Below, piece after piece: positions 3,107-53,078 of a stretch of 53,157 nucleotides of DNA. Positions within the stretch are counted from its first letter, which is position 1. Every line of letters starts with the position of its first letter. The stretch is from Bacillales bacterium UBA2253 (lineage in GTDB: Bacteria; Bacillota_I; Bacilli_A; ML615J-28; CAG-698). The DNA lies in contig DDXT01000036.1 in assembly GCA_002347755.1 (NCBI GenBank), positions 1-53,157 of the forward strand, read 5' to 3'. The notes beneath the pieces were generated by a model. That model was given only the letters and a program-made list of their open reading frames with translations, made no database searches and had not been told where the DNA came from. The position numbers were made by a program, and so were the translations under genes.

Positions 3107-3562
3107 ATGGAAAATAACGTACAGCTCCCGGAGGAGAATGTCAAACCCACGAAACTTAAACGCCCAGAAAAAAGGAAACTTCGCGTGATCAACCGCTTGA
3201 TCCTTGGCGAGATCAACGGTCCGAAAGCCGCGAAACTTTTGAAGATCACCGCCCGTCAGGTTCGGAATCTGAAGCGCCAGGTCCTCCGTGAAGGCGAACT
3301 TGGGGTTGTTCACAAGAACCGCTTCCATAAACCGATCAATACCTATGACGAAGAAATACGAGTCGAATTGGCTCATGTTTATCGGACAGAATATCGGGGA
3401 ACCAACTTTACCGAATTTGCCCGCATCATGCGTGAAGAACGAGGATATACGCTCTCCCGGAGCACCATTTATAACATTCTCCGCCAAAAGCACATCCGTT
3501 CGCCGCAACGCAAACGGGTAAAACATAAGAAAACCGAAACTACAACAATTAACACTCTATAG
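3107..3562 (+). pseudogene. N-terminal HTH fragment of an rve-superfamily transposase (ISNCY/IS481-like); DDE catalytic domain missing
   Basis: 151 aa with the layout typical of these transposases (KLRVINRLILGEINGPKAAKLLKITARQVRNLKRQ...VHKNRFHKP...YRGTNFTEFARIM...YTLSRSTIYNIL). It ends after the HTH region, directly at the ispG ribosome-binding site, and no integrase core follows. Confidence 0.6.
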
Positions 3563-22137: not shown

Positions 22138-23511
22138 TTATTTAATGATTGGAAGACAAGCCGCGGCATAAGATTGACCAACCCGGCGGCTCATTTCGTC
22201 CGGCATGGAAAGCTTAATCGATTTAAGTTCCGGGAATTCGTCATACAAAACCGTCTTGGCGACTTTCAGGATCGTATCGCCGCCTTTTCCGGAAACAACG
22301 CGGCCGAGCAAAAGCACATGTTTGATCTGATAGAATTCCGCGTAATAAGCAATCGCGTATCCCAAGTAAATCCCGATGTTCTCAAATATCTCGTTGGCGA
22401 CTGAATGGCCTTCTTCGTTGAGTTTTTGAACATATTTAAGCTTTTGAGCCAGCGAAAGGTTCTCGTCAAAGACGATTCCTCCGGCCCGTGCCAATTTGAT
22501 GACTGAGTCCTGCGAAAAATATTTGACGCCACAGCCGTAATCGCCGCTCCATTCATCAACCATGCTGTTGGGGTTGAAATCGACCGGAACAAACGCCAAT
22601 TCGCTCAACCAGCCTTTGAGGTTGCCGTTTTCATCAACGTATCCCGCGGCTTCGGAAGTGCCCATGGCCAAACCGAGAATCTGATTGTCTTTCAGTTCAA
22701 TGGCCCCGGCCAGCGCCGAGACATCGCCGTCATTGGCGACCACCAGCGGAACATCACCGAATTCATTCTTCGCGATGTCAATGTACATGTTTTTCACATG
22801 CCGATCAAAATCGTCTTTCGAAACTTTCAAAAACAGCGAAGCCGCCCTGATCCGGTTGTCAACATAGATGCCCGCCGAAGAGACCCCGATGGCGTCAACT
22901 CTTGGCATATAAGATGCGGCTCTCTTCATGGAATCCAGAATGCCGTCATGATGATATTGCGGGTTGGAATTCAGTTTCGGAAGCCAAGCCACTTCTTCGC
23001 TGTAAACAGCTTGACCATCAATGACCGCGGAAACCTTTCGGTCGCTGCCGCCGGCGTCGAATCCGATTCGGCAACCGTTGACATTGGCAGTAAAAAAAAT
23101 ATTTTGGGGTTTAAAAGCCGGAATGGAACCGTAATTTACGAAGTGAACGAAAAACGGACTTTCATAAGCTTTGGCCAAAAAATCGGCGTCAAATTCGCGG
23201 CGTCCGCCCGGTTGATAATCAGCTAAAATTTGCTCATATATGGCTTTTGACCCCGCGATGTAGATCTTGAAACCGCCAATCAACCAAAGCAGGGTTTTAA
23301 TGATTCTTTCCACGATCTCATAATTTTCTTTATCATGCCCAGCATGATCTTTGAAAGTATCGATTTTATAGATGTAGTTATATCCGTCATTTCTTTCAAT
23401 GCAAATGACGACTAATTGTTTTGAAACTCCCGCTTTTATCTTTTTTTGAAAATCATGGAGTTTCAAAATCATGGGTGAAAAATTTTTATCTAGTGACGGA
23501 ATGTATTTCAT
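22138..23511 (-). CDS. ROK/ASKHA-superfamily sugar-kinase-like protein with an uncharacterised ~135-aa N-terminal extension
   Basis: GFDAGGSD (phosphate 1), ANDGDVSALAGA and GLAMGTSEAAGY motifs in the C-terminal ~320 aa. No match recognised for the N-terminal part. Confidence 0.6.
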   Translation of the reverse strand: MKYIPSLDKNFSPMILKLHDFQKKIKAGVSKQLVVICIERNDGYNYIYKIDTFKDHAGHDKENYEIVERIIKTLLWLIGGFKIYIAGSKAIYEQILADYQPGGRREFDADFLAKAYESPFFVHFVNYGSIPAFKPQNIFFTANVNGCRIGFDAGGSDRKVSAVIDGQAVYSEEVAWLPKLNSNPQYHHDGILDSMKRAASYMPRVDAIGVSSAGIYVDNRIRAASLFLKVSKDDFDRHVKNMYIDIAKNEFGDVPLVVANDGDVSALAGAIELKDNQILGLAMGTSEAAGYVDENGNLKGWLSELAFVPVDFNPNSMVDEWSGDYGCGVKYFSQDSVIKLARAGGIVFDENLSLAQKLKYVQKLNEEGHSVANEIFENIGIYLGYAIAYYAEFYQIKHVLLLGRVVSGKGGDTILKVAKTVLYDEFPELKSIKLSMPDEMSRRVGQSYAAACLPIIK

Positions 23512-26778: not shown

Positions 26779-26921
26779 TAATAATTATAAGGTAAAAGCC
26801 CTAATTATGCAAATAATAAGTTCATCAGAAAACTAACAAAGACCATTTGAATTTTTTCTGCCTTTAGAAAAACATACTGCCAAAAAAAAAGAGCTTTTTT
26901 CGCTCCTTATTAACTTTGATT

Positions 26922-26939
26922 ATGTAACTTAGTTGGTAG
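26922..26939 (+). repeat. Island repeat copy G (aTGTAACTTAGTTGGtaG)
   Basis: 15/18 match to CTGTAACTTAGTTGGGGG, plus-strand orientation. Confidence 0.8.
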
Positions 26940-26950
26940 TGTAAGTATAA

Positions 26951-26970
26951 CTGTAACTTTGTTGGTGGTC
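26951..26970 (+). repeat. Island repeat copy F (CTGTAACTTtGTTGGtGGTC)
   Basis: 18/20 match, plus-strand orientation. Forms a hairpin/palindrome with copy E. Confidence 0.8.
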
Positions 26971-26971
26971 T

Positions 26972-26989
26972 CCCCCATAAAAGTTACAG
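26972..26989 (-). repeat. Island repeat copy E (CTGTAACTTttaTGGGGG on minus strand)
   Basis: 15/18 match, opposite orientation to F, 1 nt away. Confidence 0.7.
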
Positions 26990-27185
26990 CTTTTTTATAA
27001 TAACACGTTCTTTTCAAGATAAGTGTTGCTGGTTCCTTTTCGGGAAAAGAGCAAATTGAATAAACAAGCAAATCTAAAAAGACGTTGAGGAAAATCGGTA
27101 AAACATTTACACTTATTCAAGACATACCAAGAAAAAAGTGTAAATTGTATTGAGAAAGGCATTCGGTTGAAACCGGATGCCTTTA

Positions 27186-27213
27186 TTTTGACCCCCAACT
27201 AAGTTACAGAGCC
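27186..27213 (-). repeat. Island repeat copy D, longest unit (GGCTCTGTAACTTAGTTGGGGGTCAAAA on minus strand)
   Basis: It shares the GGCT flank with copy A and the TCAAAA flank with copy C. Confidence 0.9.
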
Positions 27214-27333
27214 CTTTTATCGAATACCGTCGCATCTACCTAATTTATGGTTCCTTTTGCTTTTTAAAAACTTTTGATCGTAAAGTTGAGCTTCTTTTTA
27301 ATTTGGCAGTTTACTTGCCAAAAGTTCTTTGGA

Positions 27334-27837
27334 TTATATTTTCCTTTGCGCATTGCTTTTATTAAAGAAAGAAAAAACAAACATCGAAACGCATGAAATC
27401 ATATTAATAGCAAACAATATTATGGCGCCAATACCAATCGATGGTATTTGGTTGGAAAAAATATATTTAGTTGACATCACATCAGCAAAATGTATTAATG
27501 CAGGTAATCCAATAGCGTTGCTTATAAAGAACAAAAGAATCAAGACATAGAAAACACCCTTAGGTAATACTTTTTTTAGATTGGATTTATCTTGAAGAGA
27601 TATTAATCCTATAATCAACATTATCATAGAGAGCATAAAAATAACTAAAGAAATAATGGTAATGATTGGGCCCTCATCATATGGGGAATTAAACCATGAG
27701 AATAATTCGTAGCCATTATAAAATGATGGTATTAAGCCTTCAAACACAATAAATGGAGTCAAATACAATATTAGGTTGATTATTCCTAATACGATTAAAC
27801 AAAAACTATTGAGGTTTTTAAAAATATTATTTTTCAT
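27334..27837 (-). CDS. Small multi-pass membrane protein, unknown function
   Basis: MKNNIFKNLNSFCLIVLGIINLILYL..., about 5 hydrophobic helices. ATG at 27837 follows GAGGAAAAC (trimmed from 27888). AT-rich codon usage. Confidence 0.6.
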   Translation of the reverse strand: MKNNIFKNLNSFCLIVLGIINLILYLTPFIVFEGLIPSFYNGYELFSWFNSPYDEGPIITIISLVIFMLSMIMLIIGLISLQDKSNLKKVLPKGVFYVLILLFFISNAIGLPALIHFADVMSTKYIFSNQIPSIGIGAIILFAINMISCVSMFVFSFFNKSNAQRKI

Positions 27838-27847
27838 GTTTTCCTCA

Positions 27848-28297
27848 CTAAGTCGTAATATGCAAGAAACACTTGATGCAATAAGCAATAGGGTCCGGAA
27901 ACTGAATCTCTATATTATGTTCTTCAAGCTTACTATACCCACACTGTCTGCATGTTGCAATATGATATTGAAAATCTCTTGGGAAATAATTACCAGCATA
28001 AGCATGTGTACAAAGAATACTAATCCCAGAAGAATTATATGAAGAGAAAGTAATGTTATCACTTCCTGTTGTTAGCCAATTACCGACTTGCCCTAAACGC
28101 AACGTAAAACTAGAAGAACTTGTATTGTTAGAATGCCTCAAAAAGAATACATTGCTATTTCCGGCATCTGAAGCAACAACAGTTCCAATAGAATTTACAA
28201 GTTCTAAATTATATTTTGTAAATACTGGGTTAATTGCGATGCCGCCATTGGATGGATTAGACCCACCCCAAACAGAATTAAATCTTTTGACCCCCAA
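27848..28297 (-). pseudogene. 5'-truncated ORF (Ser/Asn/Gly-rich region plus C-terminal H/C-rich CxxC...CxxC segment)
   Basis: The 149-codon frame has no ATG and no SD. It opens at a TTG inside repeat copy C, immediately after the repeat's in-frame TAG. Confidence 0.5.
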
Positions 28298-28308
28298 CTA
28301 AGTTACAG
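28285..28308 (-). repeat. Island repeat copy C (CTGTAACTTAGTTGGGGGTCAAAA)
   Basis: Perfect core; TCAAAA flank shared with copy D. Confidence 0.9.
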
Positions 28309-28316
28309 GCGAAATA

Positions 28317-28334
28317 CCACCAACTAAGTTACAG
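28317..28334 (-). repeat. Island repeat copy B (CTGTAACTTAGTTGGtGG)
   Basis: 17/18 match. 26 bp start-to-start from C. Confidence 0.9.
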
Positions 28335-28349
28335 GTTGTATTTCATATA

Positions 28350-28371
28350 CCCCCAACTAAGTTACAGAGCC
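28350..28371 (-). repeat. Island repeat copy A (GGCTCTGTAACTTAGTTGGGGG)
   Basis: Perfect core; GGCT flank shared with copy D. 33 bp start-to-start from B and 27 nt after the regulator stop. Confidence 0.9.
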
Positions 28372-28397
28372 AAAACTTTTTCATTGATTAATCATGG

Positions 28398-29669
28398 TCA
28401 TTGAGAAAGAATGATTCTACAATTTTGTTTGACGGTGGTCTTCAAGCCGGTTTGGTAGTAAAAGGCCTCTTTGTACTTAGAAGTGTGGCATAAATACTCT
28501 AGATAATAACGATCGTAAACTTCCCCATACAGATGATGGCTGTATAAAGCGTTATAAGGCAAGGCTTCATACTTCAGGTATTCAATCAGCGCATATTTCT
28601 TTTCGCTGGTAAATTTGATCAGCATGAACTTGATGAATATCTTGTGAATGGTTTCATTTTCCTCGTAAATTTGGTCTTTAATCAATTCTACCGCTTGGCT
28701 CCGGTAATTATCGTCATCAATCGTATCGACAGTGTAGAGCAATAAAGCGGCGAAACGGGCATCCGAGTATAAATGATTGTCAACGATTTCATCGAAAACA
28801 TCAAACCATTTGTTCCCCCTCAACATTATTTGGAGTTTCCAAGCCCGAGCTTCACTGGAAAGCCGATCATCCATTTGATTAAGGTTCAGATTTTCAATTT
28901 CTTTTTCAACTTCTTCAAAATACTCTTTGGATTCGATGTCAAGCAGCATCAGCCGGATGATCAATTGTCGTTGGCTGGGATAGCCGATGTTAAAATTGGA
29001 CATCAACTTCCGGTAATATTTAAAGACCATGGCCGAACATTTAAGGTTATAGCCAGTCACAAAATGCTGTTCGTAAATCAACCAGCTTATTTCTTTCATC
29101 TCGAAAGTAAGTTTATCCAAATATTTTAGATATTTCTCGGCTTCACCGAACTGATAAGTGTTCACATAATATTGAACAACCAGGAACATGAAAACTCCCA
29201 CGTCTTCCAAAAGCAAAGTATCCTTGATGTTATCGATGGTTTTGACGATTTCCTTAAACTCCAAATATTTTTCGTTAACCAAGTAGTAAAAGCCTTTGAT
29301 CAAACAGTTCTGAACATTAAAAATGGAATCATCGATCATTAAATAATATCTTTCAATTTCCTCGAATTTATCATAAAGATAAGCTTTGACCACGTTTTTG
29401 ACGCCTTCTTCAATGATGTTCATTCCCACTTTCGTATAATCGAGGTTAACGCGTTCAAAAATGGCTTTAATGTAATCCTCGTCAACATTGATGGCGTTCT
29501 TTTCAAACTTGCAAAGATAACTGATCGAACAAATTCCATGGGCCATCTCCGAAAGCGTCATCTTGCGGCGGGTTCGTTCATTCCGAATAATCTGCGAATA
29601 CAAATAAGTCTTTCCGGGATTTTTCCTATTTCCCAGCAACAAATCGAATTTTTCAATTTTGGTAATCAT
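28398..29669 (-). CDS. XRE-type HTH plus helical-repeat (TPR-like) transcriptional regulator, RNPP/Rgg-like architecture
   Basis: N-terminal HTH (RNERTRRKMTLSEMAHGICSISYLCKFEKNAINVDEDYIKAIFERVNL) followed by ~340 aa of helical, Tyr/Leu/Glu-rich repeats. RBS AAGGAGAGGGG. Confidence 0.7.
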   Translation of the reverse strand: MITKIEKFDLLLGNRKNPGKTYLYSQIIRNERTRRKMTLSEMAHGICSISYLCKFEKNAINVDEDYIKAIFERVNLDYTKVGMNIIEEGVKNVVKAYLYDKFEEIERYYLMIDDSIFNVQNCLIKGFYYLVNEKYLEFKEIVKTIDNIKDTLLLEDVGVFMFLVVQYYVNTYQFGEAEKYLKYLDKLTFEMKEISWLIYEQHFVTGYNLKCSAMVFKYYRKLMSNFNIGYPSQRQLIIRLMLLDIESKEYFEEVEKEIENLNLNQMDDRLSSEARAWKLQIMLRGNKWFDVFDEIVDNHLYSDARFAALLLYTVDTIDDDNYRSQAVELIKDQIYEENETIHKIFIKFMLIKFTSEKKYALIEYLKYEALPYNALYSHHLYGEVYDRYYLEYLCHTSKYKEAFYYQTGLKTTVKQNCRIILSQ

Positions 29670-31995: not shown

Positions 31996-32020
31996 AGAGA
32001 TGAAAATCAATTTCATCTCT
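31996..32020. repeat. Flanking copy 1 of the duplicated folC terminator hairpin
   Basis: agagatgaaaatcaatttcatctct (10-bp stem, 5-nt loop), identical and direct to 32190-32214. On the minus strand a T-run follows it. Confidence 0.9.
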
Positions 32021-32189
32021 TCAGACTGATGACAAACCCCATTTCCAAAGATGGGGTTCGTTTATTTTTCCACAACTATCTTGAAATAACAAAAAAACAC
32101 TTTTTTAGACAAGAAAAAGATATCTTTTTGGTGCCTTTGTCCCATTTTATTACAAGAAAAAATGAGCGTTGACTTTGTCAACGCTCTGA
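32021..32189. mobile_element. Miniature TIR-bounded element (MITE-like), copy 2
   Basis: 169 bp, ~94% identical to 9631-9800, with the same orientation relative to the flanking minus-strand genes. Confidence 0.7.
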
Positions 32190-32214
32190 AGAGATGAAAA
32201 TCAATTTCATCTCT
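32190..32214. repeat. Flanking copy 2 of the duplicated folC terminator hairpin
   Basis: Identical 25-mer, 4 nt from the folC stop. Confidence 0.9.
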
Positions 32215-32218
32215 TGTT

Positions 32219-51994: not shown

Positions 51995-53078
51995 TGTGAG
52001 ACCAAGCAAATTTGAAAAAAGGCCCGAAACTCCTGTATAATTTCAGTTACCACACAAAAACACACAAAGGAGGTCAGACCCATGTTTATTATAACACGAA
52101 TCCCCCACTCCATCAAGACTCGGATCAGCGCCGTTTCCACTTATCGCAGCTTTCGATGCAAGGTCGAGTTTATCGGCGGTAAGTATCATGTTTCCAAAGC
52201 TTCCCTGATGCGCTGGAATCTTCGGTACGACGGAACCGCCAAATCCTTGGAAGATCGGTCGAAAAGGCCGCTTACTCCGCATCCCAATGCCCATACGGAA
52301 GCGGAGATGACCAAAATCAGAAATCTCATCAGGCGCAATCCGCACATCGGGTTAATCGAACTTTATACCAAACTGCGAGTCGAGATTGGATATTCCCGTC
52401 ATTATGCCAGTTTATATCGGGTGTTGAGACGGATCGGTTTCTATCGGATGCCCGTCATCTTAAAAAAGCCTTATGTCCCAAAGCCTTACCTGACTCTGCT
52501 TTGTGTCGGCGAAAAGATGCAAATGGATGTTAAATTCGTTCCCAGAGCCTGTTATTCCGCCTTGGCTGCGTCGAATGAAAGGTTTTACCAATATACCGTC
52601 ATTGATGAAGCTTCCAGGGAAAGGTTCATTTATCCTTACCGGGAACAATCCAGTTACAGCAGCGTGGACTTCTTAAAGCGAGCCATCGCTTACTTCGGGT
52701 ATGTTCCCAGGTGTGTGCAGACAGACAACGGCTTTGAATTCGCTCATTTCAAAGAAACGGCCATGGTTCATCCGTTTGATGTCTTATGTTCTTCCTTGGG
52801 GATCGAACACAAGCTTATCAAGCCGCGGACTCCCCGTCATAACGGTAAAGTCGAAAGATCGCACCGCAACGACAGCGAACGATTCTATCAGGACCGCTTG
52901 TTCTATTCCTATGACGATCTGCTCAAACAAATGAAGCATTATTTATACCGCAGCAACCGAATCCTTTCTTCGGTCATTGATTGGAAATCTCCGATCGAAA
53001 AACGAATTCAGCTCGTCAAAACCGGTTATTTCAATTATACGCCGGCCTACTAATTATTTATCCCCTTTTGGTCTCACA
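51995..53078 (+). mobile_element. Insertion sequence, IS481-type (single rve transposase, TGT... ends)
   Basis: 11-bp perfect terminal inverted repeats TGTGAGACCAA (51995-52005) and TTGGTCTCACA (53068-53078), 12 bp if the flanking A/T is counted. One transposase ORF inside. Confidence 0.8.
52082..53053 (+). CDS. IS481-family DDE (rve integrase-core) transposase
   Basis: 323 aa. N-terminal HTH, DDE residues in QMDVK..., VQTDNGFEF, HNGKVER contexts. RBS AAGGAGG 8 nt upstream. Confidence 0.85.
   Translation: MFIITRIPHSIKTRISAVSTYRSFRCKVEFIGGKYHVSKASLMRWNLRYDGTAKSLEDRSKRPLTPHPNAHTEAEMTKIRNLIRRNPHIGLIELYTKLRVEIGYSRHYASLYRVLRRIGFYRMPVILKKPYVPKPYLTLLCVGEKMQMDVKFVPRACYSALAASNERFYQYTVIDEASRERFIYPYREQSSYSSVDFLKRAIAYFGYVPRCVQTDNGFEFAHFKETAMVHPFDVLCSSLGIEHKLIKPRTPRHNGKVERSHRNDSERFYQDRLFYSYDDLLKQMKHYLYRSNRILSSVIDWKSPIEKRIQLVKTGYFNYTPAY

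Follow-up and report, generated by a model that had tools for sequence, protein, structure and literature searches.

Mobile elements whose ends hold several binding sites include Tn7, Mu, Tn552, Tn402 and IS21. A locus that recalls such ends is described here from Bacillales bacterium UBA2253, within a stretch of 53,157 bp (contig DDXT01000036.1, analysed whole and referred to below as the window), in which seven copies of an 18-bp repeat accompany a foreign, AT-rich insert of about 1.45 kb that separates a gene for a 423-aa regulator from its presumed terminator. The locus shares with Tn7 and Tn7-like elements, Mu, Tn552, Tn402/Tn5053 and IS21 the TGT at its ends, the two or three direct cores of about 18 bp at each end and the inversion of the two ends relative to each other. 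The seven repeats are tentatively assigned to the two ends, terminal and subterminal, of a DDE-type transposon with multi-site ends that has decayed to a non-autonomous remnant and may have been composite, a reading that is put forward as quite possible rather than as probable.

A search of the whole window at up to three mismatches recovered seven copies of CTGTAACTTAGTTGGGGG, lettered G to A from left to right and with 0-3 mismatches each, and no further copy at that threshold, against a chance expectation of 0.00 in 100 dinucleotide-preserving shuffles. The shorter core GTAACTTAGTTGG has 6 matches at up to two mismatches where 0.5 are expected, and the palindrome AACTNAGTT, a 4+1+4 arrangement inside the core, is present in 5 copies where 0.48 are expected. 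An earlier note, made from the letters of this DNA, had already described these seven repeats with the same coordinates and strands, the palindrome, and the array of copies A, B and C with its start-to-start spacings of 33 and 26 bp, all of which were reproduced. The same is true of its observation on copy D, which joins the outer flank of A (GGCT) to a core and to the inner flank of C (TCAAAA). C and D are identical over 24 nt and A and D over 22-23 nt, and the direct repeats C/D (24 bp, 100%) and A/D (22-23 bp) flank an S8 peptidase fragment and a membrane-protein gene. The cores of A, C and D are identical at 18/18 positions, those of G, F and E differ at 2-3 positions. Copies F and E together make a 39-nt palindrome capable of forming a hairpin (26951-26989, z = -3.5). 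An RNA hairpin that seems to span A-C probably arises only because the core is partly palindromic, and Rfam and tRNA scans were negative.

The insert is specific to this lineage and spans 26918/26922-28371, its GC content of 33% against 44.6% for the whole window bearing out the AT-richness that had been reported for the enclosed segment. Orthologous loci were compared (L005-L009, L017, L018 and L020, with five regulator orthologues of 61-67% identity), and in five related lineages the gene order ValRS-FolC-RadC-M50 peptidase-YgjP-regulator-O-methyltransferase-U32-U32-GreA is conserved. The stop codon of the regulator and the ATG of the O-methyltransferase are only 45-65 bp apart in these lineages, compared with a gap of 1620 bp in the window. 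That short spacer holds only the TTGCAA-17-TATAAT promoter of the methyltransferase and a GGTGATTTT ribosome-binding site (RBS), and the promoter is retained in the window at about 26784-26812. On the methyltransferase side the insert ends 13 nt from an intrinsic terminator, on the other side 26 nt from the regulator stop. This terminator, presumed to be the original one of the regulator and to have been parted from it by the insert, resembles the hairpin AAGGAGCGTTTTACGCTCCTT that follows the regulator orthologue in the nearest relative, L004, whose regulator protein is 94% identical.

The outermost copies G and A, which are mutually inverted, stand at the two borders of DNA inserted between a gene and its terminator. 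A search for the empty site in relatives had been named beforehand as a check, and the regulator-methyltransferase junction is uninterrupted in all five lineages. None of these five empty junctions contains the core, nor is it found at up to 5 mismatches in the 73 nt downstream of the L004 regulator, at which point that contig ends. The absence after the L004 regulator favours a transposon, which needs no pre-existing core at its target, whereas an att site does.

Compared in opposite directions, the left on the plus strand and the right on the minus strand, the two ends are imperfect inverted repeats of about 50 nt with 78% column identity, the left being GATTATGTAACTTAGTTGGTAG-(11 nt)-CTGTAACTTTGTTGGTGG and the right GGCTCTGTAACTTAGTTGGGGG-(15 nt)-CTGTAACTTAGTTGGTGG. 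In both, two cores follow in matching order (G then F on the left, A then B on the right), the second cores F and B sharing GGTGGT, and each end has a third core, which is inverted on the left (E) and direct on the right (C). In Mu one subterminal site (R3) is reportedly in the opposite orientation, to which copy E may be compared. Both ends start with TGT (TGT at 26923, ACA ending at 28366), and AACTTT is found beside both, a candidate target-site duplication of 6 bp where those of Tn7- and Mu-like elements are about 5-7 bp. The octamers adjoining the ends are identical at 6/8 positions (Table 1), and the 5 bp beside TGT/ACA differ (GATTA against GAGCC). By resampling, the chance of finding AACTTT flanking both ends is 0.2-0.5% per boundary choice, or roughly 1-2% over the choices available. 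When the boundaries, the inverted two-core ends, TGT, AACTTT and the core-free empty sites are taken together with the foreign and truncated cargo, a transposon-type insertion fits best.

Table 1. Features of the insert and its immediate flanks, with positions numbered along the window.
Feature	Position	Strand	Core start	Remarks
Intrinsic terminator	26888-26908	-		AAGGAGCGAAAAAAGCTCTTT, then a T-run
AACTTT (left)	26912-26917			Abuts the left end; candidate target-site duplication, as octamer TTAACTTT at 26910-26917
Copy G	26922-26939	+	26922	ATGTAACTTAGTTGGTAG; outermost repeat of the left end; TGT from 26923
Copy F	26951-26968	+	26951	CTGTAACTTTGTTGGTGG; second repeat of the left end; GGTGGT variant common to F and B
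Copy E	26972-26989	-	26972	CTGTAACTTTTATGGGGG; inverted, 3 bp from F
GC-rich hairpin	27155-27184			AAAGGCATTCGGTT/AACCGGATGCCTTT; adjoins copy D; likely terminator of the cargo operon
Copy D	27186-27213	-	27192	Full 28-mer GGCTCTGTAACTTAGTTGGGGGTCAAAA
Cargo gene	27334-27837	-		167-aa multi-pass membrane protein; GAGGAA RBS
Cargo pseudogene	27848-28284	-		S8 C-terminal part of ~140 aa; beta domain and CxxC...CxxC zinc ribbon; no start codon or RBS
Copy C	28285-28308	-	28291	Core + TCAAAA; of the right-end repeats the nearest to the cargo; adjoins the truncated S8 gene
Copy B	28317-28334	-	28317	CTGTAACTTAGTTGGTGG; second repeat of the right end
Copy A	28350-28371	-	28350	GGCT + core; outermost repeat of the right end; 26 nt past the regulator stop
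AACTTT (right)	28374-28379			Separated from the right end by 2 nt; candidate target-site duplication, as octamer AAAACTTT at 28372-28379
Regulator gene	28398-29669	-		423 aa

The cargo consists of two coding sequences, and the one that adjoins copy C had been listed earlier as an ORF of 149 aa. This open reading frame (ORF149, 27848-28297, minus strand) lacks both an ATG and an RBS and is left uncalled by the gene caller on an independent assembly. Exhaustive HMMER comparison matches it to the last ~140 residues of three S8 subtilases at 39-47% identity with a best E-value of 6e-29, two of them full-length (634-635 aa) and one a 353-aa partial gene call, the identity to P0032/P0033 being 47%. 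By this homology ORF149 is not a gene in its own right but the startless C-terminal fragment of a secreted S8 subtilase of about 635 aa. A word-indexed protein search with ORF149 returned nothing, and Pfam, NCBIfam, PADLOC and PHROGs gave nothing useful for either cargo ORF. At this composition a run of 149 codons without a stop would arise with a probability of about 1e-5, and ORF149 is therefore a recent fragment of a real gene. The S8 homology starts at ...FNSVW, right after the TCAAAA with which copy C ends, and the gene is therefore broken at the edge of the repeat.

The second coding sequence, the 167-aa membrane protein, is 47% identical to its counterpart in the locus L024 and weakly similar to the product of the gene downstream of the full-length S8 gene in L022. 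Judging by such matches, the cargo is a truncated copy of a recurrent two-gene module composed of an S8 peptidase and a membrane protein, and none of the loci with homologous S8 or membrane-protein genes (L022, L023, L024, L025) carries related repeats. In L024 (1242-1920) and L025 (147-825), from an AT-rich organism, a stand-alone zinc-ribbon protein of 55 aa with its own RBS (70% identical) is followed by a homologous membrane protein of 165 aa, and it may be that a pair of zinc-ribbon and membrane protein works without the protease. Losing one G from the G-run of copy C would shift into the frame of ORF149, for which no usable start codon was found. The same frame has an ATG 13 nt past the regulator stop, from which ORF149 is parted by two in-frame stops, a TGA and a TAG, the latter inside copy C. 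An alternative genetic code with TGA as a sense codon is unlikely, as the regulator itself ends in TGA.

A history may be proposed that begins with a DDE-type cut-and-paste element inserting itself downstream of the RRNPP-type regulator gene, past the stop codon and ahead of the terminator. The ends of such an element would start with TGT and hold two to three direct copies of the 18-bp core as putative transposase-binding sites, G and F (possibly also E) on the left and A, B and C on the right, and the element would have brought in an AT-rich operon of foreign origin that encoded an S8 peptidase and a membrane protein. A later internal deletion, with its break at the inner edge of copy C, would then have taken the 5' three quarters of the S8 gene along with the transposition gene or genes, if these were ever present on this copy. 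A deletion of this kind would explain the junction between the S8 gene and copy C, and the similarity of C and D would necessarily stop where the deletion begins. Copy D is the exact product expected from recombination between the cores of A and C, it would best be read as the collapsed right end of a second copy of the element, and the original structure may thus have been a composite of element, S8 gene, membrane-protein gene and element.

A number of points weigh against this history. No transposase with matching ends is found in the window or the insert, and the only transposase gene of the window (rve, 52082-53053) has unrelated ends, TGTGAGACCAA. Copies D and E are superfluous for a simple two-ended element, and the composite model that accounts for D is speculative. 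The relatives that supply the empty sites are all distant ones (protein identity 61-67%), the close relative being represented by a contig that runs only 73 nt past the regulator, and the flanking AACTTT is short, offset by 2 nt on one side and was spotted post hoc. The identity of the A, C and D cores against the divergence of G, F and E could reflect a functional site held by selection or gene conversion. A search for a second copy of the motif in GTDB representatives, JGI metagenomes, IMG/VR, plasmids and phages gave only chance matches. The exact 18-mer has 1 chance match in 185,579 GTDB representative genomes, the K-degenerate 18-mer has 6 single matches in JGI metagenomes, all in unrelated sequence contexts, and the 18-mer has none in IMG/VR; blastn found no match for the whole insert among plasmids and phages, or for the 39-nt unit among plasmids. 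Without a second copy in public collections the mobility of the element is therefore unproven. A search of the full-text literature for the core sequence returned nothing. The earlier note had held that a motif found only here, and invariant, would argue against mobility, and this is the pattern seen in the assemblies and databases covered, with the rest of the genome and the raw reads outside these data.

The idea of transposon-like ends, which was first offered with Tn7, Mu or the ISL3 family in mind, has gained from the empty sites, from boundaries that fall at the inverted outermost copies, from the two-core ends of about 50 nt and from the flanking repeat, whereas the assignment to any of these families is unverified. 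Unlike members of the Tn7/Mu group, the insert has no TnsB/MuA/TniA/IstA-type gene and no ATPase partner, its core matches no known end, its duplication is imperfectly placed, it has the extra internal copy D, and it is only 1.45 kb long with a truncated cargo gene. That no recombinase or transposase is encoded within the insert had been stated before, and none was found among its ORFs in domain-family searches.

The terminal inverted repeats of ISL3 elements begin GG(C/G)TCTT, and to our knowledge they are single inverted repeats without tandem subterminal copies. Copies A and D do start with GGCTCT, which had been named as typical of ISL3, and the length of about 1.45 kb and the ability to carry cargo are further points in common. 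The octamers beside the two ends match at 6/8 positions, where ISL3 elements have an 8-bp target-site duplication. The left end (G) starts with GATTAT, however, and the comparison is one of six bases. The ISL3-based cargo transposon Tn7546, to which the ends were compared, has the inverted repeat GGGTCTTCGGA and an 8-bp duplication (PMC9782665). No DDE_Tnp_ISL3 gene is found in the insert or among the scanned ORFs of the window, which outside the insert were taken from those of at least 150 aa, and membership of ISL3 is accordingly not shown. Miniature inverted-repeat transposable elements (MITEs) resemble the insert in having terminal inverted repeats without a transposase and in lying between genes beside a terminator, and G...D alone would make a 292-bp MITE-like unit with internal hairpins. 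MITEs are multi-copy, in contrast to the motif here with no second copy in the 53 kb or in the public collections searched, and the element has protein-coding cargo.

It is rather improbable that the 18-bp cores are the ends of an uncharacterised mobile family of uncultured Bacilli, whether transposons ending in tandem binding sites or cassettes driven by a recombinase, in which an enzyme encoded elsewhere, acting in trans, still moves, inverts or excises the module. If this were so the identity of A, C and D would be a sign of ongoing activity, not of decay, and ends belonging to an active element would provide a new end architecture and a handle for finding the transposase. Most probably the repeats mark the ends of a decayed mobile insertion of unclassified type, fairly ordinary and of modest interest. 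It does provide a case of a conserved gene junction split by foreign DNA in a poorly known lineage of uncultured Bacilli, and an example of a regulatory-looking repeat array that is better explained as the scar of a mobile element.

Five of the copies (A, B, C, D and E) are direct repeats, the 24-bp perfect repeats C and D flank exactly the two-gene module and the array begins at the 3' end of a conserved gene, an arrangement that might also be ascribed to a site-specific recombinase acting in trans. The repeats would then be att-type sites left by small islets without an integrase that integrated and accreted in tandem, as with the cis-mobilizable elements (CIMEs) of Streptococcus thermophilus, which lie next to ICEs and where short repeats, here of 18-28 bp, likewise enclose foreign DNA beside the 3' end of a conserved gene, or they would be crossover sites for inversion or shufflon-like exchange, as with sfx/Rci in the shufflon of R64. 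We regard this as unlikely, although copy D can again be read as the product of A x C recombination, the inversion of G/F relative to A-C could support inversion of the module, and seven short copies in both orientations recall R64. No tyrosine or serine recombinase (Phage_integrase, Resolvase) is found among the scanned ORFs of the window, in which respect the locus differs from CIMEs and shufflons alike. The core is missing from the 73 nt at L004 and from the five empty sites, whereas an attB site must hold it. The S8 piece has no constant N-terminal partner, and by inspection of the sequence no deletion among A, B and C restores the reading frame of ORF149. The independent assemblies that cover the insert, L003 throughout and L002 and L010 over part of it, match the window at 100% identity and have the same single arrangement with no isoforms, which leaves the inversion or shuffling proposed earlier unsupported.

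One further point in favour of a recombinase is that two independent Logan contigs stop at copy B. These contigs, from different samples, end within a few nt of it (the end of L002 and the start of L010, at 28322 and 28340), and an identical L002 is on record from two samples. With an assembler k-mer assumed to be 31, longer than any of the repeats, the breaks could stem from a variant form or second copy present in those samples, or simply from low coverage. Integron attC sites and dif/Xer sites were considered for the repeats, by inspection neither fits.

The regulator beside the insert has no sequence match in Pfam, NCBIfam or the PDB, and its homologues, of which there are about 30, all come from uncultured 'Bacilli bacterium' assemblies. 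An AlphaFold model built with 27 homologues (pLDDT 85) resembles the RRNPP quorum-sensing receptors, with TM scores of 0.61/0.72 against NprR and matches also to PlcR, ComR, PrgX, Rap and AimR, and the predicted fold is a helix-turn-helix (HTH) joined to tetratricopeptide repeats (TPR) as in NprR, PlcR and ComR. The gene is syntenic in the five lineages and its low GC content recurs in every relative, so it is not marked as foreign and is part neither of an island nor of the insert. With the regulator a conserved, syntenic backbone gene of modelled RRNPP fold, what is left of the AT-rich island is therefore only the repeat-bearing segment. In many uncultured Bacilli the regulator holds a fixed place, between YgjP and a tRNA-modification operon. 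A conserved RRNPP-type receptor that is missed by Pfam and NCBIfam models may be of interest for longer than the repeats themselves.

With such a protein as neighbour, the repeats might be thought of as an operator or iteron-like array, by which the regulator, or a DNA-binding protein acquired with the insert, controls the inserted operon. The three direct copies A, B and C lie just upstream of the two cargo ORFs with their 33- and 26-bp spacings, the core contains the 4+1+4 palindrome, the adjacent protein has the HTH and TPR fold of NprR, PlcR and ComR, and selection could account for A, C and D being perfectly identical. Known RRNPP operators such as the PlcR box and the ComR box are palindromic boxes of about 16-20 bp. 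The palindrome here, at 9 bp, would not be long enough for a dimer of HTH proteins, and the spacings do not correspond to whole turns of the helix. The orthologous loci of the regulator, itself a backbone gene, are without such repeats, no copy lies in its own promoter region, the motif is confined to the foreign DNA, and 4/7 copies lie downstream of the operon, beyond its terminator. An operator array would also leave the boundaries of the insert and the truncation of the S8 gene at a repeat edge unexplained, so that this alternative, which had been raised earlier and of which the palindrome still stands, is now very doubtful. The core also matches the LytTR box at 8/9 positions, but LytTR spacing is 21 bp and not 26-33 bp.

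A final possibility links the repeats to the regulator through a peptide. RRNPP receptors usually adjoin a pro-peptide gene, and pheromones of the SHP type terminate with ..VGG. The small ORFs that contain copies A and D have an ATG start and encode LCNLVGG, and the repeat might on this basis encode the motif (L)CNLVGG as the double-glycine or SHP-like end of small secreted peptides that are sensed by the regulator, to which its fold match would lend some weight. A mini-ORF of the form ATG...MKKFWLCNLVGGI* is present at 28343-28384 on the minus strand, 13 nt past the regulator stop, and copy B is in the same frame (CNLVGGI). This mini-ORF has no RBS and is only 13 aa long, the conservation is limited to the 18-28-nt DNA unit without a start codon or leader, the copies are in both orientations and in all frames, and the chance matches of the 18-mer elsewhere are in unrelated sequence contexts. 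The relatives leave no room for an ORF downstream of the regulator and their orthologous loci have no conserved small ORF, which makes the peptide explanation scarcely credible. The relatives likewise have no room there for a pro-peptide gene.

In the rest of the window Pfam scans, which covered most ORFs of at least 150 aa, show housekeeping genes, the exceptions being the rve transposase and a 151-aa HTH fragment. The transposase, of 323 aa on the plus strand, belongs to an IS481-like insertion sequence at 51995-53078, the ends of which (51995-52005 and, inverted, TTGGTCTCACA at 53068-53078) are unrelated to the CTGTAAC repeat. The 151-aa ORF (3107-3562, plus strand) has only transposase-type HTH domains (HTH_28/HTH_23/HTH_32) and has a BspA-LRR/GDSL lipase gene on one side and gcpE on the other; it is probably what remains of a transposase, unrelated to the motif. 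A 457-aa protein encoded at 22138-23511 on the minus strand has no Pfam match and stands beside greA in all relatives, where it is 456 aa long and in one has a weak ROK match.

A second, smaller insertion of about 170 bp lies between FolC and RadC (window 31998-32215, the insert itself at about 32023-32189), as seen against the 87%-identical L004 (7301-7351). Copies of a terminator-like hairpin, AGAGATGAAAATCAATTTCATCTCTT, stand on both sides of this insertion, in which the Logan contig L002 has another break, and the first 30 nt of the insertion, CAGACTGATGACAAACCCCATTTCCAA, recur in L004 right after the hairpin downstream of the regulator orthologue, at the end of that contig. It looks like a small MITE-like element that lands beside terminator hairpins.

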